Source: an uncultured bacterium
GTDB taxonomy: Bacteria > Bacillota_I > Bacilli_A > RF39 > UBA660
Reading direction: 5' to 3'
Assembly: GCA_947646655.1 (NCBI GenBank)
Contig: CANSHI010000005.1
Location: 1,599-65,598, forward strand
Length of the DNA: 64,000 nucleotides
Positions 27,617 through 41,126 of the stretch are shown in pieces. Numbering within the stretch: the first letter of the stretch is position 1; every line of letters begins with the position of its first letter. Under the pieces are notes generated by a model, which was not told the origin of the DNA, searched no databases, and saw only the letters and a program-made list of their open reading frames with translations. Made by a program: the position numbers and the translations under genes.

Positions 27617-28354
27617 TTAGTAGTTTGTATTATAGCAAGTTTTTTTATAATCGATATTTGCTAACTTGGCTTGTTTACACAAATCTTTCGTTTGAATTTT
27701 ATATTGTTTTCCATCTTTTATTGTATAAGTTCCACACTGTCTAAATTCAAAATTAACTTTTTTTCTTATACACTGTTCTCTAACATTTAAAGCCCATTTA
27801 TAATCAAAAGTTCTAGCATTAACATCAGATTCTCCACCAACTACTACAAGTTCTATATCAATAAGATATTTTTCTATATCGATATTTTCTAATAATGGTT
27901 GTGCTGTGATACATTTATGTTTTATTGGAAGATCTTTAAATATGGATAATTTATAATCAGTATTTTTCTGATTTTCGATAGTACAACATACAACGACATT
28001 ATCATAGCCACCATTCCAATCAGATGGAATACATTTCATGAATCTTTCAATTCGCTTTGTTAAAAATAGAAAGGTGCAATCTTGTCTTTCTTTAATCATT
28101 TTCCAACATTCATCTCTCCACTTGTCGGCTTCTTCAATAAGAAAGTCAGTAGAAAAACATAAATAAACGATTCCAGATTTCATTTTATATTTGCCATTTT
28201 TAAGTTTTTCTATTGGTTTATCAAAGTATTCTGTTTTTACAATTTCATTAGTATTTATATTTCTTTTTGTATCCCCCTTTATGAATATAGCAATGTAAAC
28301 AGCCTTCACTACATTTTTTACAACCTCGCCATGGATTCCACATTGCCATATTAA
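27617..28354 (-). pseudogene. Phage Gp37/Gp68 (DUF5131) family gene split by a +1 frameshift in a GGGGG run
   Basis: A 33-codon ORF MAMWNPWRGCKKCSEGCLHCYIHKGG starts at 28354 (AAGGAG RBS) and matches the DUF5131 N-terminal WNPxxGCxxxSxGCxxCY motif. After the G5 run near 28255 it continues in another frame as the 230-aa track ORF 27617..28309. Confidence 0.5.
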
Positions 28355-28414
28355 TCACTCCTTAAATCTTTAATTTCCATAATTATAAGGAACACTTGTT
28401 CCTATAACTAATCT

Positions 28415-29077
28415 TCATTTAGTCAAATCCGAATCTTCTTGAATAGGTATTAATCTCGTTTTTATAGTATTTATAAAAGCACATTTATGCTCTATTTCAA
28501 ATCTTTCTTTGTCAGTTGTTAATTCATATTTTATAAATAAATTAGGTATGAACTCATACTTATCACTAGCAAAATTTCCATAAGACGTATCACTTTCTGT
28601 ATAACTTCCTTTTAACATATTATATAAAAGTTTCCATCTATCACAAGATCCAATATCAGTTTCTTTTGTAATATCATCATTTTCTTTAAAGATAGATTCT
28701 TCTTTCATGTCTATCTCAGAAAATTTTATTTTTAATTTATCATAATAATCTTTTAATATAGAACCTTTAAAATACTGATTTAATGCAACTTCTATACACT
28801 TATTAACATCTGTATTTTTATTAATTACTATTAATCTAACAGGCATTTTATTTTTATAAAATACTATAGCATTATGTTTATTACTTATATGTATGTCATT
28901 TTGATTGACATTAATAATACAATTACAATTCTTAATAATTTTATATTCATCAAATGGTATTTTGTTATTTTCAAATCCATCAACAAATGCTCCATTAAAA
29001 CATTCATAGTGATTTTCATGTTGTTCAGTCCATAAATCAATTGTTTTAATTGTCTTCATTATTTTAAATTCTTTCAT
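28415..29077 (-). CDS. Hypothetical protein (220 aa)
   Basis: ORF inside the mobile-element region; no motif. Confidence 0.35.
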   Translation of the reverse strand: MKEFKIMKTIKTIDLWTEQHENHYECFNGAFVDGFENNKIPFDEYKIIKNCNCIINVNQNDIHISNKHNAIVFYKNKMPVRLIVINKNTDVNKCIEVALNQYFKGSILKDYYDKLKIKFSEIDMKEESIFKENDDITKETDIGSCDRWKLLYNMLKGSYTESDTSYGNFASDKYEFIPNLFIKYELTTDKERFEIEHKCAFINTIKTRLIPIQEDSDLTK

Positions 29078-29491
29078 TTCGATTTAATTTTGGCTTGCTT
29101 CAAATTTTTAATATATTTGTCAGTTAAAATATAATCAACAGTTCTTATTTGTTTTTCATTTAATCTTTTTAAAAAGTCTTTTTGAGTCCGGTCTTCCATA
29201 AAAATCTTCCCAATTAGTCAGTCACGACTGACCAGTTCAAAACAAAAATTTAAATCTCTTATATTATAACATTTATTTTGTGCTATTTATACTATTTTAG
29301 TAGTATCCCATTAAATTAATGTTTTTTAAACTACTTTAATTCATAATAACAAAAAGTGTAGCCTAACGGCCCCTTCAGGGGGCGGTTAGAGTTCACGCAC
29401 TTCAAAGTTTATTTAAATAATTTTACCTTTATTTTAATAGGATTAAAAATACTTAAATTTAACAAGTATTATATGAATTTTTAAATTTTGG

Positions 29492-29530
29492 TAGTTGAAA
29501 AGGTAGTTGAGATAATTATAAACTACCTTT
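29492..29530 (-). terminator. Hairpin plus T-tract downstream of the 29566 gene; T-runs on both strands, so possibly bidirectional
   Basis: GGTAGTTGAGATAATTATAAACTACC stem-loop with T-runs on both sides. Confidence 0.35.
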
Positions 29531-29565
29531 TTTATTTTTTATAATTTTTTTAACAATTTTAAATA

Positions 29566-30387
29566 TTATTTTTTCAATTTTCCTATAGGATATAATTCAT
29601 TAAGAAATTCATTTAATTCTGCCTGATTATTTGCATTTATTACTGAAGTAAATAATATTGTATCATTATCTCCCAATATTTGTTCTATAATTCTTTGTGG
29701 TTGCAATTTAAACATCTCTTCATTAGTTGCAAAAATCCACTTTTCAGGTTCACCATATTCTTTTGACCACCCATCAATATAAAATCTTACCATAGTCATA
29801 TCAAAATTAACCCAAATATTTTTTTCTTGAATATATACCAAATTCCATGCATGGCCTGTAGTACCTTTTCCTCTTACTTTTAAACAAGGAATATTCAAGC
29901 TATCACATATTTGTTTAATCCACCTTGAATATTCTCCGCATACACCATTTGTTAATAATCCATTACAATATATTGGTGGATAATTGTTTGGCTCAATGTG
30001 AACAATTTCATCATAAGCATCTCTAGCAGGAATTTTTATTATTCCATTTTTTGCTAGTTGTGCTTCATGATGAATAACAGTACCATAATTTTTAAACCAT
30101 TCTAATTTATTTTTTTCAGATAATGGTCTTCCTTCAATTTTTAAGAATGCATCGTCTAAAAGTTTTATTAAATATTCTTTAAATTTATCAGATTTCTCAT
30201 TTTCATTTTTTGTTATTAAATCATTAACCTGTCTTAAATATTCATTTTCATATCTTTGATATTTTACTACTTGAAGTTCATCATAATTATAACTTACATT
30301 ATTTTTGAAATAGCTAAAAAGAGTGATTAAAATTTCCTCTGTACTAGTTAAACTAGATAACATTTTAATAAATTGTTCATAATTCAT
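29566..30387 (-). CDS. Transglutaminase-like / papain-fold cysteine peptidase domain protein
   Basis: GVCGEYSRW (Cys) followed by GHAWNLVY (His) and a downstream Asp: a Cys-His-Asp transglutaminase-like core. Confidence 0.45.
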   Translation of the reverse strand: MNYEQFIKMLSSLTSTEEILITLFSYFKNNVSYNYDELQVVKYQRYENEYLRQVNDLITKNENEKSDKFKEYLIKLLDDAFLKIEGRPLSEKNKLEWFKNYGTVIHHEAQLAKNGIIKIPARDAYDEIVHIEPNNYPPIYCNGLLTNGVCGEYSRWIKQICDSLNIPCLKVRGKGTTGHAWNLVYIQEKNIWVNFDMTMVRFYIDGWSKEYGEPEKWIFATNEEMFKLQPQRIIEQILGDNDTILFTSVINANNQAELNEFLNELYPIGKLKK

Positions 30388-30459
30388 ATTTTGCCTCCTA
30401 TATTTTTTCTTGCCTTTTTTATTATTTTAGTTTATTATTTAAAGCATTAATGTATTTAT

Positions 30460-30810
30460 TCAAGTACTTATTCTTCTCTTTTGAATTATATTGCATAATA
30501 AATCTTGGATGTTCTTAGGGATTCCTTTTATTCTTAAAATAGGAGCTATTGCAAGACCAATATCAGAGCATCCTGAATATGTTCTTCTTACAAATATTTC
30601 AGCAGATGTACATGCAAATTTTTTTGTATTTTTATCAGAAATAAAATAAGAATAAAATAATTCATCAATATACTTTAAATCCTCTACATGTTCTAACGGA
30701 GGAATTTTATTAGCAAATGATATCATTTCAGGATTCGGTTCATTTTGGTCTTTATTTTCTAATAAACTTACCAAATTATTTCTATCAACTGTATTAATTA
30801 TGTTACTCAT
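30460..30810 (-). CDS. Hypothetical protein (116 aa)
   Basis: ORF only. Confidence 0.3.
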   Translation of the reverse strand: MSNIINTVDRNNLVSLLENKDQNEPNPEMISFANKIPPLEHVEDLKYIDELFYSYFISDKNTKKFACTSAEIFVRRTYSGCSDIGLAIAPILRIKGIPKNIQDLLCNIIQKRRIST

Positions 30811-30857
30811 ACGAACCTCCTCAATATTACTATTTGTGCAACACTTTATATAAAATA

Positions 30858-31046
30858 TTATACCATTAAAAAAGCAAAATCTAAACTGATTCTACTCTCA
30901 TTCTTCAAAAAATTTATTATCCTAACACCTAGTATTATAGAAATCTTATATATAGTCATAAGTGATATATTATCTCTATCATTAGTCGACTCGATACATT
31001 TTAGATGATTAACCGATACATCTAATTTTTCAGCAAGATCCATCAA
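30858..31046 (-). pseudogene. Truncated XRE-type HTH regulator remnant
   Basis: LAEKLDVSVNHLKCIE resembles the second half of the HTH in the 31595 gene (LARTLDVSLSCFF), but the protein is too short to be functional. Confidence 0.3.
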
Positions 31047-31594
31047 TCTTACACCTTTTTCGTTTCAATATTTCTGGATGTTTTGACAGATAACAGCCTT
31101 AATATTTTCATTAAAGTCAGCATACTAATTCAAAATATCACTTTCCTAATTAAAATTATAGAAAAAAACTACAAATGTAGTATTGGTGTGTTTTGTAATT
31201 TCTTTTTTTAGTAAAAAAGTGGAGCCTTTCGGCTCTGGGGGCTATTAAATTTTAATTTATTTTTATCTAAACTCACACTTTATCCTATTTTTTATAAGTT
31301 TTCTTTTTATTTTAATTTAAAAAAATTTATTTTTTCACTTTTGATTTTAAAAGTTTGTGGGGTAAATGTGGGATAAAGCACATTTTTTTAAAATTCATTC
31401 CTTACAAACCCTAGTATTTAAGGCAAAAAAGTAGTCGACATAATTAATATGCCGACTTTCAGGGGGGTGTAAAATTATGGATTTTTATAGTTTCCCATAG
31501 TTTAAAATCCCTTTATTTATAATACTTTCAGCACTTTTGAGATTTTTAGAGATTTCTAAAGTTTAATATTTTGAGTGGTAAATAAGTGGTGAAA

Positions 31595-31894
31595 TTAGTC
31601 ATTATATTTAGGGGGATTAAGTATAGGCTCTTTTAAGAAGAAGCAGGATAAACTGACATCTAAAGTACGAGCTAATCTGTCAAGAAAAACTACTGACACC
31701 CCTTGCTCTACATTTTTGGCTGTAAGGTTGTATAACATATTAGGACTACTGTCTATCTCCTCCGCCAATCTTTCAATAGTAACAAATCCTTTTTCGTTCA
31801 TTATTTTAGTGTTATTAGCATGATAACGATAATAATTGATATTCTTTCCTATTAGATTTAATAGGTCTTTTTTATCTTGGTCGGTATAATTCAT
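31595..31894 (-). CDS. XRE-family HTH protein, accessory gene at the island edge
   Basis: HTH-like ITIERLAEEIDSSPNMLYNL…LARTLDVSLSCFF. Confidence 0.45.
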   Translation of the reverse strand: MNYTDQDKKDLLNLIGKNINYYRYHANNTKIMNEKGFVTIERLAEEIDSSPNMLYNLTAKNVEQGVSVVFLDRLARTLDVSLSCFFLKEPILNPPKYND

Positions 31895-32070
31895 GTACGC
31901 CTCCTATACTAAGTCATACACTTAGTAAATCTCAGTAATAATTATCGCCAAAATATCAATTTTTAACCATAAACGTAACACTTAATTATTTTAAGTTATT
32001 TACTTAAACCATATTGCGTAAATAAGTTTATTTGTGCTATAATATAGAAGTATAGAGGAGTGAGAAAAAT

Positions 32071-32475
32071 ATGGAAAATTGGTCTGTAAAAAAACAATTA
32101 TGTTTAATCTTTGGAGGAGGAGCTGTATTACTTATATTTATTTTTTTGGTAGCTATTTTTTATGATGGAAATGGGAATAAAACCGATTTAACAGAATCGA
32201 AAGAAAATTTAGATGGACTTCAAGGAAACTGGGCAAAAGTTGATAATACTACTCGAAAAGTTGATAAATCTGAATATTTAAGTTTTGATGGAAAAGGAAA
32301 TGTTACATATTACGTAAGCGGTTATAGTTTAAATTATAATTATACTTTTGATGATAAAGTGTCTTTTGAAAATTGGTCTTGTAGTCTAAAATCGACACCT
32401 TATTCAGATGGTTCAAAACAATATAGGTTAGAATGTTGGAGTGATACAACAATAAGAGTTTTTATTAGACAATAG
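32071..32475 (+). CDS. Small membrane-anchored protein (134 aa) with an extracytoplasmic Cys-containing domain
   Basis: N-terminal TM LCLIFGGGAVLLIFIFLVAIF; C-terminal domain with paired Cys (WSCSLK…RLECWSD); strong hairpin terminator follows. Confidence 0.45.
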   Translation: MENWSVKKQLCLIFGGGAVLLIFIFLVAIFYDGNGNKTDLTESKENLDGLQGNWAKVDNTTRKVDKSEYLSFDGKGNVTYYVSGYSLNYNYTFDDKVSFENWSCSLKSTPYSDGSKQYRLECWSDTTIRVFIRQ

Positions 32476-32496
32476 CTTATATTTTGTAAAAAAATT

Positions 32497-32537
32497 AGTC
32501 CCATTGTCCGACTTGAACATCGGGACTTTTTCTTTTT
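32497..32537 (+). terminator. Rho-independent terminator of the 32071 gene
   Basis: AGTCCC…GGGACT stem followed by TTTTTCTTTTT. Confidence 0.5.
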
Positions 32538-32632
32538 CCCCTTTATTTATGGGGCAAAATAAAGATAGCCCGCGGGTTTACCACTTATTTTACCTCTATT
32601 TGACCTCAAAAATTGCATTTTTTACCAATATT

Positions 32633-32835
32633 AAGAGTTACAGAGTTACACAATTTTGTTGATCTCTTTTTGTTTTTTATTTTTTTCTTTTCTTAATTTA
32701 TTTGAAAAGAATAAAAGAAATTTTGTAACAATATAAAGACTTGGAGTATGATCCCCAAGTTTTAAAATGCTTAACTTTGGTTACAGCAATTTTTTTATTT
32801 CTGTAACTTTGTGTAGAATAAGCGTAACAAAAGAA
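32633..32835. repeat. Iteron-like cluster of GTTACA/TGTAAC hexamers, a candidate replication origin downstream of the primase operon
   Basis: GAGTTACAGAGTTACA tandem at 32635-32650, TGTAACA at 32726, GGTTACAGCAA at 32779, CTGTAAC at 32801, CGTAACA at 32822, plus a TTACAG…CTGTAA palindrome, all within about 200 bp of non-coding DNA. Confidence 0.4.
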
Positions 32836-33019
32836 ACACAATTTCATATACGCTTATGGCTGGATTATTAAATTTCTCTTGCAAGATTCTTTTAACATCA
32901 TACATAAGTTTATTACTAGCCAAATTTTCTTTTGTGATTATTGTCATTTTATAGCTACTATGAATCCACTTTCCTTTGCTATTTTTATAAATATAGAGGA
33001 CTATTGCTTCTTTCTCCAT
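32795..33019 (-). CDS. Hypothetical small protein (74 aa), abuts the primase gene
   Basis: ORF contiguous with the 33020 stop. Confidence 0.3.
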   Translation of the reverse strand: MEKEAIVLYIYKNSKGKWIHSSYKMTIITKENLASNKLMYDVKRILQEKFNNPAISVYEIVFLLLRLFYTKLQK

Positions 33020-34873
33020 TTATTCTTCCTCCTTAAATATTTTTCTAACACTTGCTCCAAACTCATCTTTTACAACTCTTGACTTATACCCTAAAGCATT
33101 TAATCTGCGACTAAAACGTGCTGGCGACAATGTTTTTAGTTTATTAGCTTGTGTATACATTTCATAATAATGATAGGCTTCTGTTACCTTTCTACCTATT
33201 ACGTGTTTAGATTGTTCCTCAAGGTAGGATAATACGCTGTCATTTTCAATATGATATTGCTTGGTAGCTTCGTTTATAGTGCTGCTTGTAGAAAGTTCTA
33301 AATCATTGTCAAAAAGCCTTTGTACTCCCTCTAACGCAAGATTAAGAATATAACTCTTTGCATTGTCTGTACTTAATTCTTCATCAATATATGGATTCCG
33401 CTTCTCGACTACATTTTCAAAAGGAACGATCACAAGTCTACGAATCAATCCATTTGACTTGTCTTTAAAGCTAGGAGGCTCATTTGCGGTAAATATAAGG
33501 CTTGCTGTATTTTTAATTGATATAGGCTTGCTATATATTGCTCTAGTGCCTATTTTATCACCACTTGCCATGGTTTTTAAATTTTTGCTTTTTTCTAAAT
33601 ATACAGAATCTACATCATCACTTACATTAACTATTTTTCCAATTAGTGATGTAAGACTTGTACCATCATCAAAATCAGCAATATCAACGTATGAAGCAAG
33701 ATCCCCTGTAAAATTAGTAATAAGTTTAATAAAGGTGCTTTTTCCGTTCTTTCCGTTTCCAGTTAAGAAAAATATCTTATGCGGAAATCTATTAACTAAA
33801 ATTATATGTCCTAATACTTCCTCTAAAACTAATCGTAAGTCCTTTTTCCCAAAAGAAATAAAATTTAGAAAAGTGTCTACATTTTCATCGTATGCGTTTT
33901 TATCATACAATACATCAAGATAGAAAGGCGTAAAATCACACTCACTCTCGACTACATGATTATTAAATATATATCCATTACGCAGCTGGATTTTAAATTT
34001 ATCATATCCGCTGTCAATTAGATCAGCATACTTATACAACTGATGATTTAATTCGCTATCTTTATTACGTGTAAGCTCAATATACTTTGCGATCTCTCTT
34101 AACAATAAAGTTTCGTTACTAATATACTTCCCATCGGTTTTGAAATATAATTGTCCGTTATATAGTTTTATATCTAGTTTTTTAACTATCCACTTGGCAG
34201 CAGAGATCATATCTTTTTTACTTCCTTTGTAGATTTCCATGTTAGACAAAGGATCACTAGCTAATACACTTTTAATTACACGATCTAGCTCATTATTTTC
34301 CATTACTTCACCGAAAATATTCTGATTGATAAATTCTCCAATCTGTGCTATATTTAGCGTAGGATAACTTTGTTTTAAACAATATAAATGTGCGTTTATA
34401 CCAACATTGCGACCATCACCATCACACATATTACTCAAATTAGTTTTAATTGATAAAGGGTACAATATAGGAGGTAATATAGGAAGATTTGTAAGAGTTA
34501 GATCTCGATTTCGTTCTCTTTCAACGCCGCAGCGTTTAACAATTCCATATTGATTTCCAGTTTTATAATCAACTTGGAAGCCTCCCGCTGTAATTACATC
34601 AGACTTTGATTTAATAACAATGTCGGAGGGTTTACTAAAATAAAAATGATAACCCTTTGTAGTAGTTATAGTAAGTGTAGGATAATTGAGCTTTATATAC
34701 TCGATTATCCCTTTTTCTTTCTCCCCATTATCACCATCAAAATCTACTAATACCACGTTATTGTTAAGCATAAGCCCAGCACTATTCAAATGATCCATAC
34801 TTGGATATGTAACATCATAGCTAGTTTTAGGAGATTTATCTTCGTTAAGTTCTATGAATCTTAATTCTGACAC
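33020..34873 (-). CDS. Phage/plasmid primase-polymerase plus SF3 helicase (P4-type, D5_N-like) replication protein
   Basis: Prim-pol motifs VVLVDFDGDN and GYHFYF in the N-terminal half; Walker A GNGKNGKST in the C-terminal half. Confidence 0.7.
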   Translation of the reverse strand: MSELRFIELNEDKSPKTSYDVTYPSMDHLNSAGLMLNNNVVLVDFDGDNGEKEKGIIEYIKLNYPTLTITTTKGYHFYFSKPSDIVIKSKSDVITAGGFQVDYKTGNQYGIVKRCGVERERNRDLTLTNLPILPPILYPLSIKTNLSNMCDGDGRNVGINAHLYCLKQSYPTLNIAQIGEFINQNIFGEVMENNELDRVIKSVLASDPLSNMEIYKGSKKDMISAAKWIVKKLDIKLYNGQLYFKTDGKYISNETLLLREIAKYIELTRNKDSELNHQLYKYADLIDSGYDKFKIQLRNGYIFNNHVVESECDFTPFYLDVLYDKNAYDENVDTFLNFISFGKKDLRLVLEEVLGHIILVNRFPHKIFFLTGNGKNGKSTFIKLITNFTGDLASYVDIADFDDGTSLTSLIGKIVNVSDDVDSVYLEKSKNLKTMASGDKIGTRAIYSKPISIKNTASLIFTANEPPSFKDKSNGLIRRLVIVPFENVVEKRNPYIDEELSTDNAKSYILNLALEGVQRLFDNDLELSTSSTINEATKQYHIENDSVLSYLEEQSKHVIGRKVTEAYHYYEMYTQANKLKTLSPARFSRRLNALGYKSRVVKDEFGASVRKIFKEEE

Positions 34874-35052
34874 AATAACCCCTCCATTTTTACATAATTG
34901 TAAAGATCCACTATATCTTTTACGCTCAAAAATATTTTGTAGTAGGAATACTTATCCAATTTTGGCGATTCATCATTTTTAATTAAGTAAAGGGTTTGCT
35001 TTTTGCCAATTTCAATGACCGCAGCTTCCCTAAAATTTCCGATTACTCTCAT
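34861..35052 (-). CDS. Hypothetical island protein (63 aa)
   Basis: Short ORF in the operon. Confidence 0.25.
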   Translation of the reverse strand: MRVIGNFREAAVIEIGKKQTLYLIKNDESPKLDKYSYYKIFLSVKDIVDLYNYVKMEGLLCQN

Positions 35053-35053
35053 T

Positions 35054-35326
35054 TTAGCTCTCCCTTTCCTCTAATTCCTCAAAAATATTATTTAAAGAGA
35101 TTTCCATAAGATCCCCAACTTCTTTAAATGACAGGTATTTTTTATTATCGAAATTTTTATCGCAAATTAAAACACTATTTTCCTTATCATTTAAAGCATA
35201 TATGTTATTTTTTGTAGTGTAGATTTCTTCACTAGTTTTAAAGAAATCAACAGGAATCTCTATTATAGAAGCAGGAACACTATTGTCATATTTTTTCATT
35301 AAATTTCGCCTCCATCTTCTTTGCAA
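35054..35326 (-). CDS. Hypothetical island protein (90 aa)
   Basis: ORF in the operon. Confidence 0.3.
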   Translation of the reverse strand: MQRRWRRNLMKKYDNSVPASIIEIPVDFFKTSEEIYTTKNNIYALNDKENSVLICDKNFDNKKYLSFKEVGDLMEISLNNIFEELEERES

Positions 35327-35571
35327 TTTATAGCATTTCCTATTATATTTCCTGTGATATATTGTAATTCTTCATCGTTTTGTATCGGCATACTATTAAG
35401 CTTCTTTTTTAGGCTTCTTAATTCTGCTTCACAATTCGCTTGCCACTCGGAAATTTTATCGAATTTCCTTTTTAATTGCCTTTCAATAGCTAAATCTATA
35501 TCGGTACAATCTTGGAATATTTTGTTCCTTTCAGAATCAACATCAATTATATCATTTTTATTTTCTTTCAT
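35299..35571 (-). CDS. Hypothetical island protein (90 aa)
   Basis: ORF in the operon. Confidence 0.3.
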   Translation of the reverse strand: MKENKNDIIDVDSERNKIFQDCTDIDLAIERQLKRKFDKISEWQANCEAELRSLKKKLNSMPIQNDEELQYITGNIIGNAINCKEDGGEI

Positions 35572-35773
35572 TTAGATTTCCTCCTTTTTTATTTATTTCT
35601 TGCGATACAATATCATATATAGTGCCAGATGATATACGCTTTTTTCCTTTTTCAAATTCACCACTTTTTCGTGATTCTTTCCTCATTTCACATATAGATT
35701 TCTCTATTAAAGTGAAACGACTATTCATTTCACTTTTAAGCTGTAAAATAGCTTTTTTTAATTCATTTTCCAT
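35558..35773 (-). CDS. Hypothetical island protein (71 aa, coiled-coil)
   Basis: ORF in the operon. Confidence 0.3.
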   Translation of the reverse strand: MENELKKAILQLKSEMNSRFTLIEKSICEMRKESRKSGEFEKGKKRISSGTIYDIVSQEINKKGGNLNERK

Positions 35774-36102
35774 TATTCTTCTCCTTTTACTTCTAATTTT
35801 TTAAGATAATCAACTATTTCATTGATATATGTAGGATTTATAGCAACTTGATTGACACCATCTTTAATAACTGTCCACTCAAAATGCAACTCCACTATTA
35901 AGCGATCCCCTATTTTTAAAGTAGGGCATATATCATAGTCTTTTCTTTGAAATTGTTGAATTTTTAACATCTGTTCTACACTCAAATATACAGGGCATAA
36001 CTTATCAGCAGCTATGATCATAATATTTTGACCTTTAATAATTACAATGTGATCTATAATATCCAAAATATCACAGTTTTCACCTTTATAAATGCTTTTC
36101 AT
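35773..36102 (-). CDS. Hypothetical island protein (109 aa)
   Basis: ORF contiguous with its neighbours. Confidence 0.3.
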   Translation of the reverse strand: MKSIYKGENCDILDIIDHIVIIKGQNIMIIAADKLCPVYLSVEQMLKIQQFQRKDYDICPTLKIGDRLIVELHFEWTVIKDGVNQVAINPTYINEIVDYLKKLEVKGEE

Positions 36103-36449
36103 TACTTTTTTACCTCCCTAATTGTTAAATCTGGGTATGAATACTCAAAGAGCTTGTTTTTAAGCATATATACATCTGTTTTAAAGCCTTTTGTATCTTC
36201 AACAATAGTTTTACCTTGTTTAAGATCAAAGTAGCTAAAATCAGCCTTATAACAGGTTTTTCTATATGCTTTATTTCCTTTTTTAAACTTTGGAATCAAC
36301 TCATATGATGGTTGCAGGACTAGATCCTTAATAATTCCTTGTGATTCTAAAGTTTTAAGCTCCTTATACCTTTTTGCTTCCAATTTTGAATCAAAAGTTA
36401 TTCCATCAACACAAGTTTTAGTATTATGGTATTTAGGTTTATTTTTCAA
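36102..36449 (-). CDS. DUF1064-family phage/satellite protein
   Basis: KTCVDGITFDSKLEAKRYKELKTLESQGII…YKADFSY…VEDTKG matches the conserved DUF1064 pattern seen in staphylococcal phages and SaPIs. Confidence 0.45.
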   Translation of the reverse strand: MKNKPKYHNTKTCVDGITFDSKLEAKRYKELKTLESQGIIKDLVLQPSYELIPKFKKGNKAYRKTCYKADFSYFDLKQGKTIVEDTKGFKTDVYMLKNKLFEYSYPDLTIREVKK

Positions 36450-36693
36450 AGTCAGCTTCCTCCTTTACTCGCTTTAAATAATTGATGTTTAAACCAAAGA
36501 ATTTTACAACATCTTCCATTTTCACGAGATTTTTTGGTAAAAATAAACCATTTAATTCTGATTCTATTCTAATTTTGCGTTTTATTTCTAACGCTGTTCC
36601 ACGACCTACTGATCCAATCGACATAATATCTTGTGTGTTTGCCCAAGGTTTTGCGATTAGATTTAAAATGTCTTTAGCTGGAATTATTCTCAT
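36439..36693 (-). CDS. Hypothetical island protein (84 aa)
   Basis: ORF overlapping the downstream gene. Confidence 0.3.
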   Translation of the reverse strand: MRIIPAKDILNLIAKPWANTQDIMSIGSVGRGTALEIKRKIRIESELNGLFLPKNLVKMEDVVKFFGLNINYLKRVKEEADFEK

Positions 36694-36711
36694 TTTTCAC
36701 TATTCCTTTCA

Positions 36712-36927
36712 TTATTTCGGCGATTCGTTCGTTTTAGAGGGCAAAAAAATAATATCCTCAAATTTCATGTTGCTAGCTGTAAGAATTTTCATTATTATTG
36801 GGGCTGTTGGATATGTCTTAAACTTCTCATAGTTTCTTATAGTATCAACACTAACACCATATTGCTCCGCTGCTTCTTCTAAAGACCACCCTAAATTTAC
36901 TCTTATAGCCTTTAAAGTCATCTTCAA
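36712..36927 (-). CDS. Cro-like XRE-family HTH regulator
   Basis: 71-aa HTH (LKAIRVNLGWSLEEAAEQYGVSVDTIRNYE), divergent from the cI-like gene. Confidence 0.6.
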   Translation of the reverse strand: MKMTLKAIRVNLGWSLEEAAEQYGVSVDTIRNYEKFKTYPTAPIIMKILTASNMKFEDIIFLPSKTNESPK

Positions 36928-37106
36928 TAAACTTCCTCCTCTCTTGGCTGACTGATGTCTATTTTAATTAAATTTTTCCAAAAGTCAAGCACTATTTTAC
37001 GATTAATTATCAATTTTTGTTTATTTATATCTTTTTTGAATAACGAATCGTTGACAAATCTCATAATTTATGGTAATATATTCTTGTAATTGAAAGAGGA
37101 GATACT

Positions 37107-37463
37107 ATGGATAAAAGTAAGATTAAAATATTTAGTACTAATCTATCATACTATATGAAATTAAACGGGAAAAAAAGGCAAGATGTTGCTAAAGATTTAA
37201 ACTTTCCGTATTCTTCATTAAGAGATTGGGAAAAAGGAATCTGTTATGCACAAATAGACAAAATAAAAAAACTTGCTGATTACTTCAATATTTCAATAAA
37301 CGATTTAATAGAAGATCGTAACAGGGCTACACTAATAAAAAATATCAAAGAATCTGAAGAATCTAAACTAATAGAAGAAATTATAGAAGAACTCCCAAGT
37401 TTATCAAAAGAAAAACTTAAACATATTAAAACAACAATAGCTTTATTAAAAGAAAGCAAATAA
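37107..37463 (+). CDS. cI/Stl-like XRE-family HTH repressor
   Basis: HTH FSTNLSYYMKLNGKKRQDVAKDLNFPYSSLRDWEKG; GAGGAG RBS; divergent from the Cro-like gene and followed by the integrase. Confidence 0.6.
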   Translation: MDKSKIKIFSTNLSYYMKLNGKKRQDVAKDLNFPYSSLRDWEKGICYAQIDKIKKLADYFNISINDLIEDRNRATLIKNIKESEESKLIEEIIEELPSLSKEKLKHIKTTIALLKESK

Positions 37464-37604
37464 AAAAGAGCTAGTACTGGTAATACTAACTCGAACGCTA
37501 TATAGCGTACACAAGAAAAAATAATCCCAGCTAAAGACATTTCTTTTTGTGTACCTCTATTATAGCATTTAACAAAAAATATTGCAATTATGGAGGTTAT
37601 AAAA

Positions 37605-38714
37605 ATGGCAGTATATCAAGAAAAAAATAAAAATAAATGGACTAAAGATGGCAGGAGTTGGTATTTTAGAACACCATATGTTGATCTAACAGGAAAACGC
37701 AAACAATATTGGAGCTGTTTCTACTTAACAAAAAAAGAAGCTCAAGAGGGAGAAAGACAATTTCTAGCTTCTGTTAAAAATAAAGTAGATAATACTAGTA
37801 TGACTTTTGAAGAATTATGTTCAGCTTTTTACAAACATCAAGAAGAAGAAGTTAAAGAAACTACACTTCAAACATATAAAGATCGTAAACCATTTTTAGA
37901 GTATTTATATCATATTAAATTAGTAGATTTTAACATCAATCATTTTGAAATGTGGAAAAAGAAAATCAATGAAAAGAAAATTGCTACTAGTTATAAAAAT
38001 GACATATTAAAATTTTTAAAAGCTATACTTAACTTTGGTACAAAAAGATACAATTTTAATTTTACAGCAGTATATAATCAAATGAAAAATTTTAAAGATC
38101 CTAATGGAATAAAGAAAGACATGGATTATTATACTCATGAGGAATTTTTACAATTTATAAGTTATGAAACTGACTTAAAATACAAATGTTTATTTGAAAC
38201 ACTTTATTATTGTGGTTTAAGAAATGGTGAAATGAGAGGAATCACTTGGGAAGATATAGACTTTAATAAAAAGACTATTAGTATTAACAAGCAGATTCCA
38301 ACTCGTTATACAAGTAAAAATTGGAAATTTACAAGTCCTAAAACTAAAAATAGTATAAGAACATTACCTATTCCTAATATACTTTTAGAACATCTTAAAA
38401 TACTTTATAGTAAAGAATCTCAATATAAAAATTTTAAGTCTACATGGTTTGTATTTGGACAAGCTGATGTTCCAATCGTTGCAGATAATCCAAGTTATAG
38501 ACAAGAGGTTATCTGTAAAAATGCCAACATCAAGAAAATCAGAATACATGATTTTAGACACAGCTGTGCTTCACTTTTAATTAACAAAGGTGCTAATGTA
38601 ACAATCGTTGCAAAATACCTAGGACATACAAAGATAGATGAAACACTAAATACCTATACTCATATGTTTGGAAGTGCTTTAGACCAAGTTGTAGATCTTA
38701 TAAATAATTTATAA
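37605..38714 (+). CDS. int: Tyrosine site-specific recombinase (phage-type integrase)
   Basis: C-terminal catalytic region with R…HDFRHSCASLL…GH…YTH (R-H-R-Y signature). Probable start is MAVYQEK with a GGAGG RBS. Confidence 0.85.
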   Translation: MAVYQEKNKNKWTKDGRSWYFRTPYVDLTGKRKQYWSCFYLTKKEAQEGERQFLASVKNKVDNTSMTFEELCSAFYKHQEEEVKETTLQTYKDRKPFLEYLYHIKLVDFNINHFEMWKKKINEKKIATSYKNDILKFLKAILNFGTKRYNFNFTAVYNQMKNFKDPNGIKKDMDYYTHEEFLQFISYETDLKYKCLFETLYYCGLRNGEMRGITWEDIDFNKKTISINKQIPTRYTSKNWKFTSPKTKNSIRTLPIPNILLEHLKILYSKESQYKNFKSTWFVFGQADVPIVADNPSYRQEVICKNANIKKIRIHDFRHSCASLLINKGANVTIVAKYLGHTKIDETLNTYTHMFGSALDQVVDLINNL

Positions 38715-38750
38715 AATAAGTGGTGAATAAGTGGTAAAGCCACTTTTTTT
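38714..38750 (+). repeat. Tandem ATAAGTGGT(G/A)AA units directly after the int stop, overlapping the int terminator hairpin
   Basis: AAATAAGTGGTGAATAAGTGGTAAAGCCAC followed by T7. The same 14-mer AAATAAGTGGTGAA occurs at 31580-31593, and an inverted copy at 32577-32594. Confidence 0.4.
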
Positions 38751-38789
38751 AAAAGCTAAAACCTCCCAATCCCTTATAAATACTGGGAT

Positions 38790-38931
38790 AAAAAAAGTGA
38801 TAGGTCTTTCGACCTATCTTCAGGGGGTTTTGGTCGACTTCGGCCCATTAAAATCATGGGCGGAGGTCTAGCATGACATTACTCAAATATCACGCTATAA
38901 TAATCATACTTTAATTTTAGTTTTTTGTCAA
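38790..38931 (-). ncRNA. Candidate roughly 100-nt small RNA, or pnp 3' terminator region: promoter-like TTGACA-17-TATGAT, two hairpins, terminator
   Basis: On the minus strand, TTGACA (38931-38926), a 17-nt spacer and TATGAT (38908-38903). The transcript would contain GCCCAT…ATGGGC and GATAGGTC-GAAA-GACCTATC hairpins followed by T8. pnp read-through is an alternative explanation. Confidence 0.25.
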
Positions 38932-38966: not shown

Positions 38967-41126
38967 TTATTTTTTTTCAATTGTTTTTTCTTTTTTTTCC
39001 GACTTTGGAAGTGCTTCTTTTCTCGATAAATTTAGTCTTCCTCTGTTGTCAAATCCTGTAGCTTTTACTATAATCGTGTCTCCTACTTTTACTATATCAC
39101 TCGGTTTTTCAACTCGCTTATTATCTAATTCACTGACGTGTACTAAGCCTTCACACAAAGGCCATAATTCTACAAAACAACCAAATGTTTCCACCTTAGT
39201 AACTTTTCCTGTGTAAACTTGTCCTATTTCAACTTCTTTTACTACATTGGAAATCATCTCAATAGTTTTGTCAATAATTTCTTGATTAGAATGATATACT
39301 ACTACATGTCCATCATCATCAATATCAACTTTAACAGCATCTTTGTCATTGACAGTTTTAACATTAGAGGATTCTAAAATAATTTTTGTAATCATTTCTC
39401 CACCACGACCAATAACATCTTTAATTCTTTCAGGTTTAATATCCATCATAGCGATTTTTGGTGCATAAGGACTTAACTCTTTTCTTGGTTCGGGAATTAT
39501 ACTTGTCATTAAGTCAAGTATTTGTAATCTCGCTTTATGTGCTTGTGCTAAGGCTTCTTTTAAAATACTTTGGGTAATTCCTTTGATTTTTATATCCATT
39601 TGAAGAGCTGTAATTCCATTTTTAGAACCTGCTACTTTAAAATCCATGTCTCCCATGTGATCTTCTAAACCTTGAATATCGGTTAATATAGCATGTTTTT
39701 TCCCTTTTGTTATTAAACCCATTGCAATACCTGCTACAGGAGCTTTAATAGGAACTCCAGCTGCCATTAAGCTTAAACATCCAGCACATATAGAAGCTTG
39801 ACTAGAAGAACCGTTACTTTCTAAGATTTCACTTACGACACGTATTGTATAAGGAAATTCTTCCTCACTAGGTATGACTTGTAAAAGTGCACGCTCGCCA
39901 AGAGCTCCATGTCCAATTTCACGTCGGCCAGGTGCTCCGTATCTTCCTGTTTCACCTACACTAAAGTTAGGGAAATTATAATGAAGCATAAACCTTTTCA
40001 TATCTTCGATACCTAATCCATCGAGTATTTGATGTTCACCAATTGCTCCAAGTGTCGTAGTACTTAAAGCTTGTGTTTGTCCTCTTGTGAACATTGCACT
40101 TCCATGTGTACGAGGTAGAGTATCTATTTCTGCACTCAATGGTCTTATTTCATCAAGTTTTCTTCCGTCTGGGCGAATACCTTCTAAGACAATTAAATCA
40201 CGTACTAACTCGGCTTCTAACTCGTCAACTAGTATTCTAACATTTTTAAGTATGTCCGCTAAGTTTTCATTTTCAGCATATATTTCACCAAAATGGCCTA
40301 TTGCTGAAGTTTTAACGTTTTCAATCATCTCAAATTTTTCTTCTTTTGTACCTGGTGTACGAATAGCTTTATCCATGGCTTCTTTTGAGTATTCTTTTAC
40401 GATAGTAGTAAGCTCAGGGTCGATACAAGCTAAGTCGACTGTAATCTTTTCTTTTCCAACTTCTTTTATTATTTTTTCTTCAAATTCACAAAGTTCCTTT
40501 ATAGCAGCCTGACCAAATTCTATAGCTTTAAGCATTACTGCTTCAGATACTTCTTTAGCTCCTGCTTCAATCATACATATATCGGTTTTAGTTCCCGCGA
40601 GAGTGAGAAGTAATTCAGATTTCTCTGTTTCTTCAACTGTCGGATTGATAATATATTCTTTACCAATTTTACCTACTCTGACTCCCGCGATAGGCCCATC
40701 GAATGGAATATCGCTTATACCTAAGGACAAGGAAGCTCCCAGCATAGCGGCCATTTCTGGTGAATTGTCAGGGTCCACTGATAAAACCATATTTACGACT
40801 TGAACTTCATTTCTAAAACCATCTGCAAACATAGGTCTAATAGGTCTGTCGATCAATCTGGCATTTAGTGTTGCTTCATCAGTTGGCTTTCCTTCACGTT
40901 TTATAAAGCCTCCTGGAATTTTACCTACTGAATAAAGTTTTTCTTGGTAAAGAACTGTAAGTGGGAAAAAATCTGCTGTGCTGACATTGTTACTCATTAC
41001 TGAAGCACTTAATACGACTGTATCTCCATATCTAATTAAAGCAGAGCCATTTGCTTGTTTAGCTTTGTCACCTGTTTCAACTGTGATTGTTCTTCCCCTA
41101 AAATCTAATTTAAATTCTTTTTTCAT
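38967..41126 (-). CDS. pnp: Polyribonucleotide nucleotidyltransferase (PNPase)
   Basis: 719 aa with two RNase PH domains, KH and S1 domains; conserved position downstream of rpsO. Confidence 0.95.

Follow-up and report, generated by a model that had tools for sequence, protein, structure and literature searches.

Phage-inducible chromosomal islands, or PICIs, are defined in SatelliteFinder by five core components; the class termed 'Type C' has three of them, and its members were treated as ambiguous and set aside by the authors (PMC10085698). Minimal satellites free of packaging genes have been recognised only recently, namely the PICMI and StCI elements. PICMI is packaged as concatemers in full-size helper capsids despite lacking packaging genes (PMC10803314), and the StCIs were described as 'Type C PICI' satellites by Morency et al. 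2026 (PMC13376191). PriRep5, the self-loading primase/SF3 helicase of SaPI5, one of the staphylococcal satellites termed SaPIs, binds to repeats of an origin directly downstream of its own gene (PMC9371898). Here, we analysed an island in a 64,000-nt stretch of contig CANSHI010000005.1 (assembly GCA_947646655.1, from an uncultured bacterium), hereafter the window. This island is an intact, currently mobile and site-specific element of phage-type modules, and we put at roughly 60% the probability that it is a helper-dependent, packaging-gene-free satellite (PICI 'Type C', StCI-like).

All coordinates are positions in the window, whose G+C content is about 28%. Occupied and empty alleles of the locus were obtained by looking up the exact polynucleotide phosphorylase (PNPase) protein, encoded by pnp beside the island (38967-41126, minus strand), in public assemblies. 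The occupied allele, contig L001, was 100% identical to the window through pnp into the integrase gene. The empty site, contig L002, was 100% identical to window positions 43850-38819 and then, switching from 38819 to 31466, to positions 31466-31081. These two segments overlap by 9 nt, the core TTCAGGGGG found at both junctions, and the island therefore spans 31467-38827 (7,361 bp counting one core). Occupied and empty alleles coexist in an otherwise identical background, so that the presence/absence polymorphism is precise, and the integrase inserts the element at this 9-bp core in a small RNA gene next to pnp. In an exact search of the window, the 9-mer occurred at 31458, 38819 and 29374 only. 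The attachment-site features are the following.

31458-31466: att core copy at the integrase-distal junction, TTCAGGGGG, exact 9-mer direct repeat
31467-31594: integrase-distal attP arm, with two 11-bp arm-type repeats, GAGTGGTAAAT and AAGTGGTGAAA, at 31574-31599
38715-38818: integrase-proximal attP arm, with arm-type repeats at 38715-38740 and terminators for the integrase and the target RNA
38819-38827: att core copy at the integrase-proximal junction, TTCAGGGGG, exact 9-mer direct repeat

The 11-bp repeats, of the type AAGTGGTRAA, form one pair at 31574-31599 and another at 38715-38740, ~107 and ~85 bp from the core, respectively, and we infer that this is the layout expected of arm-type sites for an integrase with an arm-binding domain. 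The integrase-proximal arm is homologous to chromosomal positions 31355-31457; a terminator scan placed in it the integrase terminator (38729-38745, plus strand) and a replacement terminator for the target small RNA (38799-38818, minus strand). An earlier note on this region, made from the letters of the window, had described a compact integrative island with ends at 31575 and 38750. These ends lie on the arm-type repeats, and the true ends are ~100 bp further out on each side; the 14-mer AAATAAGTGGTGAA found there was rejected as the att site, being an arm-type repeat with the crossover core ~100 bp further out. The comparison of strains that the note had proposed for presence or absence and for recovery of the att sites yielded the precise empty allele as well as the core and arm repeats, and its description as a compact integrative island is strongly supported by the polymorphism, the core and arms, the many host backgrounds and the sibling circle described below.

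The open reading frames (ORFs) of the island were searched against Pfam, PHROGs and NCBIfam, and additionally at relaxed thresholds (E up to 5). From the integrase end leftwards, the features are as follows (HTH, helix-turn-helix).

37590-38714, plus strand: tyrosine integrase (called start 37605, 369 aa; Phage_integrase E 7.6e-30, Arm-DNA-bind_4, phrog_1)
37107-37463, plus strand: cI-like 118-aa HTH repressor (HTH_26 and HTH_3, residues 12-69 only; phrog_2967)
36961-37079, no strand assigned: divergent promoter region between cro and cI (TTGACT-16-TAAAAT on the minus strand; TTGACA-17-TAATAT, TG-extended, on the plus strand)
36712-36927, minus strand: cro-like regulator of the HTH_3 family, opening the leftward operon (PF01381 E 3.4e-9; phrog_3)
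36439-36693, minus strand: 84-aa ORF after cro, orf84 (no family match; helical; AF2 pLDDT 55)
36102-36449, minus strand: DUF1064 protein, a phage Holliday-junction-resolvase-type nuclease (PF06356 E 1.6e-29; phrog_190 E 1.7e-41)
34861-36102, minus strand: five small ORFs of 63, 81/90, 90, 71 and 109 aa, kept across copies
33020-34873, minus strand: 617-aa fused primase-polymerase/SF3 helicase, PriRep-like (DUF5906 E 1.2e-14; phrog_864 E 1e-94)
32795-33019, minus strand: 74-aa ORF directly downstream of the replicase gene (94-96% conserved in other copies)
32634-32810, no strand assigned: candidate replication origin, five TGTAAC/GTTACA repeats around an A-rich tract
32577-32605, minus strand: 11-bp AAGTGGT-like repeats forming a third cluster inside the island, 1.1 kb from the distal att core
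32498-32528, no strand assigned: hairpin/terminator at the inner edge of the cargo slot (terminator scan)
32071-32475, plus strand: cargo gene, encoding 134 aa with a membrane anchor at the N terminus (weak DUF5640 match only, E 0.044)
31595-31894, minus strand: 99-aa HTH_26 regulator at the far end, HTH99 (Pfam HTH_26 E 1.1e-4)

Further copies of the island were found by look-ups of the exact primase and HTH99 proteins, which led to many metagenome contigs and to two backbone types. Type 1 copies have the gene order of the window at 94-100% protein identity for most genes, and this compact gene set was intact in >10 contexts. Type 1 copies differed by exchange in the integrase, which was 100% or 78% identical, in the cI/cro pair (100% or 77/87%) and in the cargo (134, 146 or 323 aa). 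Type 2 copies (L090, L095 and L098; 7.9-8.3 kb; L090:2485-10429, L095:2116-10429) contain other small ORFs and have retained the att arms, HTH99 and the 134-aa cargo, which are 97.5% identical to the window island in nucleotide sequence. Their replicase has an N-terminal primase domain that is 67% identical, joined to an AAA_25/DnaB-like helicase in place of SF3, and is followed by DUF4240 and two small ORFs. The integrase-distal arm was near-identical across all copies of both backbone types, and all complete copies were bounded by CCCCCTGAA(G) repeats, 7.37-8.31 kb apart. The internal repeat cluster at 32577-32605, located on the opposite strand at the edge of the common cargo module, is also retained in the Type 2 islands and therefore moves with the integrase/cargo module rather than with the replicase; extra integrase binding and a recombination boundary are its candidate roles. 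Such mosaicism, in which the integrase, cI/cro, helicase domain and cargo are swapped between near-identical copies, is typical of phages and satellites.

One of the Type 2 copies, the 7,973-nt contig L098, begins and ends with the same 30 nt and so closes into a circle of 7,943 bp, with the joint exactly at the core. The integrated island in L090 (7,944 bp core to core) matched this circle at 99.8% identity, and L098 represents an excised circle or head-to-tail form of a sibling island. The islands shared 92-98% nucleotide identity while the RecG proteins encoded in their flanks were only 49-54% identical to each other; the islands have therefore moved recently between distantly related hosts, and these near-identical copies together with the sibling circle mean that the element is active and mobile between hosts. 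These hosts belong to the uncultured gut Bacilli; the PNPases of highest identity (70-84%) came from metagenome-assembled genomes that carry the label Bacilli, Tenericutes, Erysipelotrichaceae or Candidatus Coprovivens. In 80 related species representatives, the neighbourhood of pnp contained neither island genes nor the target motif.

The genes that the earlier note had listed (integrase, cI/cro pair, small ORFs, DUF1064, primase/helicase and far-end genes) are all present and intact. Their order was given correctly overall, except that the DUF1064 gene is the second after cro and precedes the string of small ORFs instead of following it. The note had left a choice between a minimal and a decayed element; no ORF is truncated, conservation between copies is 94-100%, and the decayed form was rejected. 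Its statement that terS, capsid-remodelling and morphogenesis genes are missing held up, as no terminase, portal, capsid, tail or lysis family was found in any island ORF by Pfam, PHROGs or NCBIfam. In particular, no terS was found even at E up to 5, a search that highly divergent small proteins could escape. Relaxase, coupling protein, type IV secretion and conjugation families were likewise absent from the island ORFs (Pfam, NCBIfam).

The integrase gene adjoins one end of the island, 105 bp from the att core, and Tn1549 Int was among the PDB relatives of its product. No Peptidase_S24 self-cleavage domain was found in the 118-aa repressor (Pfam); a related phage, L009, encodes S24 as a separate gene. 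The divergent promoters between cro and cI are good promoters of the sigma-70 type. Seven small ORFs (the five of the operon, orf84 and the 74-aa ORF) gave no family match in Pfam, also at relaxed thresholds, PHROGs or NCBIfam. Based only on its position, orf84 is a candidate excisionase (Xis), and a 36%-identical counterpart is encoded in the Type 2 islands; its AlphaFold model (pLDDT 55) was too poor for use. The 109-aa ORF had only five homologue clusters among 5.8 billion proteins; its AlphaFold model (pLDDT 61) was also too poor, and a BFVD fold search gave no match at E <= 0.001. The cargo slot is variable, with a 146-aa or 323-aa protein in its place in other copies (L005, L008, L003). 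Its inner edge was located by an alignment (A2) that is conserved as far as the hairpin at 32498-32528 and divergent past it. PADLOC assigned no defence family to the cargo and the small ORFs, apart from one chance-level match, and relaxed Pfam searches of them gave nothing credible. HTH99 was 94-100% identical in both island types (tblastn, L003-L008 and L090-L099).

The only PDB relative of the replicase was SaPI5 PriRep5 (7OLA, E 1.5e-20). Its C-terminal half matched TIGR01613, 'phage/plasmid primase, P4 family', with 155 bits against a cut-off of 108.7, and the Pfam family Prim-Pol (PF09250) is present in some of its homologues. Outside the islands, the nearest homologues (56-58% identity) were encoded by the complete SPP1-like temperate phages L009 and L102, which are ~25-33 kb long and contain terS (Terminase_2), terL, an SPP1-type portal and Mu F; these phages are candidates for the gene pool or the helper family. 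Relatives of cI and cro, at 43-48% identity, were also observed in L009. TGTAAC occurs five times, in both orientations, within 32637-32808 (172 bp), compared with 0.7 per kb across the window. This cluster was conserved in all Type 1 copies and absent from the Type 2 islands, which have a different helicase domain and whose homology to the window starts just beyond it. Because the TGTAAC repeats travel with the SF3 replicase, 32634-32810 was taken as the likely replication origin, in the same position as in SaPIs, where the origin lies just downstream of the replicase (PMC9371898). The repeat cluster reported downstream of the primase gene in the earlier note is thus real, consisting of the five TGTAAC repeats, and is not directly adjacent to that gene, the 74-aa ORF lying between them.

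The insertion splits a predicted small RNA gene, of which one part remains beside pnp.

38828-38931, minus strand: target, promoter and 5' part of a ~100-nt small RNA gene, outside the island and downstream of pnp

The gene spans 38790-38931 (minus strand), and its 3' end in the empty allele corresponds to window positions 31425-31457. A promoter scan found a near-consensus promoter on the minus strand, TTGACA-17-TATGAT, with 11 of 12 matches. The RNA consists, in order, of two hairpins, a single-stranded CAACCAAAACCCCCUGAAG stretch (…CGACCAAAACCCCCUGAAG) and an intrinsic terminator, the last two of which flank the att core. The same architecture was found at the integrase-proximal junctions in eight host versions, with unrelated helix sequences, and six versions compared with shuffled controls had folding z-scores of -6.9 to -9.0. 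The strict conservation of ~20 nt around the core may partly reflect ascertainment, as only sites usable by the integrase are seen. Rfam gave no family at gathering thresholds for the whole window, and only chance-level matches for the target region at E up to 10; a tRNA or tmRNA as the target was rejected, there being none in the window. We concluded that attB is, judging from its promoter and predicted fold, the 3' end of an unannotated small RNA gene. Insertion swaps the terminator of this RNA, since the island supplies its own at 38799-38818 next to the integrase gene and the original is displaced to the far end; this could alter the regulation or stability of the RNA. At least three kinds of small integrase elements use the small RNA gene as an integration hotspot.

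Directly left of the island lies the remnant of an earlier insertion.

31213-31457, no strand assigned: relic of an earlier related element, ~245 bp, outside the island

This relic, present in both the empty and the occupied allele, contains degenerate arm repeats (31356-31377) and the terminator that the small RNA uses in the empty allele (31433-31457), as well as, at 31213-31245, a degenerate core and a probable native terminator of the small RNA, resembling the native terminator in L005. The earlier note had placed the island between pnp and a second degraded element. It does lie beside pnp, and its immediate left neighbour is the ~245-bp relic, not a gene-bearing degraded element. The segment at ~28-31 kb was not substantiated as a mobile element by its gene content: window positions 27617-31046 encode DUF5131 (phage Gp37/Gp68-like), 220-aa and 116-aa orphans, a protein with a weak transglutaminase-like match and a truncated 62-aa HTH protein. 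Elsewhere, in L097 (7174-8273) and L099 (7364-7434), a second small element was observed in tandem at the same core after the island, with an integrase 52% identical to that of the window and different arm repeats (GGTACCCA). An 87%-identical relative of the tandem-element integrase represents a cluster of ~2,600 sequences and sits in compact HTH/AAA_25/integrase units beside HEPN AbiU2-like genes (L100:4785-7907). An origin of the L097/L099 integrase from a helper prophage was rejected, its relatives being small HTH/AAA_25/integrase elements with defence-like cargo. In L003 (L003:1-6140), the island copy adjoins a defence-like cluster (Fic, EcoRI-type methylase, GmrSD/HNH and YobI ATPase), and its integrase-side flank looks more like a relic arm than like the RNA gene, pointing to tandem arrays or a secondary site.

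If the island is a helper-dependent satellite, its life cycle might run as follows. In the integrated state, the 118-aa cI-like repressor would silence the leftward operon of cro, orf84 (candidate Xis), the DUF1064 nuclease, the five small ORFs and the PriRep-like primase/SF3 helicase. The repressor consists only of an HTH domain and is therefore unlikely to respond directly to RecA, which makes a phage anti-repressor the natural trigger; derepression would probably be brought about by such a phage-encoded protein, as for SaPI Stl. Int and a directionality factor would then excise the circle, and the replicase would self-load at the origin of TGTAAC repeats and A-rich tract directly downstream of its own gene, so that the element is amplified. 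Because the island has neither terS nor capsid genes, its transfer would rely on a helper, either through headful packaging of concatemers in full-size capsids, as for PICMI (PMC10803314), or through release of DNA by phage lysis followed by DNA uptake, as for StCI (PMC13376191). The divergent pair at the far end, HTH99 and the swappable membrane-protein cargo with its own promoter and terminator, would be expressed when integrated and may repay the host, for example by superinfection exclusion. A wider proposal, which we offer only tentatively and regard as rather doubtful, is that the islands constitute a hitherto undescribed satellite family free of packaging genes, in which one att/cargo module is common to two backbone types and whose members circulate between genera of uncultured gut Bacilli, target one small RNA whose 3' end and terminator they rewrite, and are moved by SPP1-like headful hijacking as concatemers or by a phage-triggered, capsid-independent route.

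Dependence on a helper phage is plausible given that every recognisable gene of the island belongs to a phage family (phrog_1, phrog_3, phrog_190 and phrog_864), and several results weigh against it. No helper phage was identified, and neither a packaging signal nor an occurrence in viromes was found; in a cos/pac comparison, the phages L009 and L102 had no DNA segment in common with the island beyond the primase gene. The island DNA had no match in the INPHARED phage genomes, IMG/VR contained no close relative when searched with the primase, arm repeat, integrase and DUF1064, and an exact-pattern scan of JGI metagenomes did not find the attP junction. Of the five core components of a PICI, terS and capsid morphogenesis are absent. 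The circular contig is a Type 2 sibling and not of the window's type, and a tandem duplication could assemble alike. The spread over hosts with ~50% RecG identity is wide for phage-mediated transfer, and the roles of orf84 as Xis, the route of repressor induction, the origin and the cargo are all inferred.

Some of these points would suit an autonomous element instead, namely a phage-derived, phage-independent, integrative and self-replicating unit. Its spread would not involve a helper capsid and would proceed by natural transformation, with the DNA either naked or in vesicles. Searches of the island revealed neither a packaging nor an interference gene, nothing turned up in the viral contig collections searched, DNA uptake explains copies in hosts with ~50% RecG identity more easily than phages of narrow host range do, and StCIs are able to move by competence (PMC13376191). 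We nevertheless consider this somewhat unlikely: phage proteins induce even the StCIs, an external, phage-borne inducer is suggested by the lysogeny-type switch, whose repressor is free of a self-cleavage domain, and variants of the repressor are exchanged between islands that are identical in other respects, as is the case for the Stl proteins of satellites. The wide host range, together with the small size and the combination of an integrase with a replication protein, would also be compatible with an integrative mobilizable element, conjugated by a relaxase and mating pore acting in trans on an unrecognised oriT; this att site is also used by other small integrase elements, one of whose relatives has a Mob_Pre relaxase gene nearby (L100). 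This appears quite unlikely, as the recognisable genes are those of phages, no match to any PLSDB plasmid was found, and the island showed no relaxase, coupling protein or oriT-like feature, a result that an oriT used in trans might have escaped. Finally, phage-type genes without structural genes, next to a genuine ~245-bp relic of an earlier element (31213-31457), could be taken for a decayed prophage remnant, fixed in the chromosome and immobile. The precise empty allele in an identical background, the compact gene set intact in >10 contexts at 94-100% protein identity, the sibling circle and the recent transfer between hosts effectively refute this explanation, to which we attach hardly any probability. 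By analogy with known satellites, a helper-dependent, packaging-gene-free satellite seems the best account of the island as a whole.

With respect to the SatelliteFinder definition, the island contains three of the five PICI components, namely an integrase at one end, a divergent regulation module and a primase-replicase; the regulator was recognised by a generic HTH_3/HTH_26 match, with no specific homology to Stl. The other two, terS and a capsid morphogenesis or packaging-interference gene, were not found. No tail, holin or other structural genes were detected, in agreement with the definition, and the attachment site is documented by the 9-bp core at both ends, the precise empty allele and the sibling circle. 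By these rules, the island would be 'Type C', the same class as the StCIs (PMC10085698, PMC13376191). The PICI-like satellite proposed in the earlier note is plausible in view of the phage-type genes, the PriRep5-like replicase and the repressor without self-cleavage, and has against it the absence of terS and capsid morphogenesis.

The StCIs of S. thermophilus resemble the island in being small (7 kb up), with short direct repeats, an integrase, HTH regulators and primase-type replication (PMC13376191). Both have no structural or terS genes, variable cargo, three of the five PICI components, exchange of integrase and cargo, and transfer across species. This likeness is one of described features; the hosts of the island are uncultured low-GC gut Bacilli and its target is a small RNA gene. 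For StCIs, phage induction, competence-mediated transfer and phage resistance have been demonstrated (PMC13376191), whereas the island is known here from its sequence alone. Features that SaPI5 has in common with the island are a terminal integrase gene, a divergent repressor/cro-like pair, the replicase as last gene of a rightward-type operon, a repeat-containing origin immediately downstream of it, a homologous fused primase/SF3 helicase and a repressor without a self-cleavage domain. However, SaPIs are ~15 kb long, and their origin is followed by a packaging operon (terS, cpmA/B or ccm, ppi, ptiA), where the island has only the cargo gene and a regulator, and the island has no homology to SaPI Stl. 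The left half of the island appears to work like a SaPI, with nothing replacing the packaging operon.

PICMI, from Vibrionaceae, is similarly minimal (6.1 vs 7.4 kb for the island), combining an integrase and a primase with no terS, sid, ppi or capsid-remodelling genes (PMC10803314). It differs in its AlpA regulator, its location next to fis, its Gram-negative hosts and its virulent helpers, compared with cI/cro, a small RNA gene near pnp or recG, and Bacilli for the island; no shared genes are known. P4-like satellites have only the C-terminal domain of the alpha-type primase (TIGR01613) in common with the island, in which homologues of psu, delta, sid, epsilon and alpA were not found and no cos site was identified. 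The capsid, portal, terL and head-tail genes of cfPICIs and the markers of PLEs were not detected. The terminase, portal, capsid, tail and lysis genes of temperate prophages are absent from the island and present in L009 and L102, and the relaxase, coupling protein and type IV secretion genes of integrative and conjugative or mobilizable elements were not found. Overall, these comparisons place the island among minimal PICI-like elements of the Type C/StCI-like kind, with a probable status as a satellite. It is a cleanly delimited, active 'Type C' example from an uncultured gut lineage without described satellites, and it brings to light an unannotated, structurally conserved small RNA gene as an integration hotspot. 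If helper dependence is true, the lifestyle of minimal satellites such as PICMI and StCI extends to gut Bacilli, and the core, the arm repeats and the HTH99/cargo module are markers for finding such elements in metagenomes.

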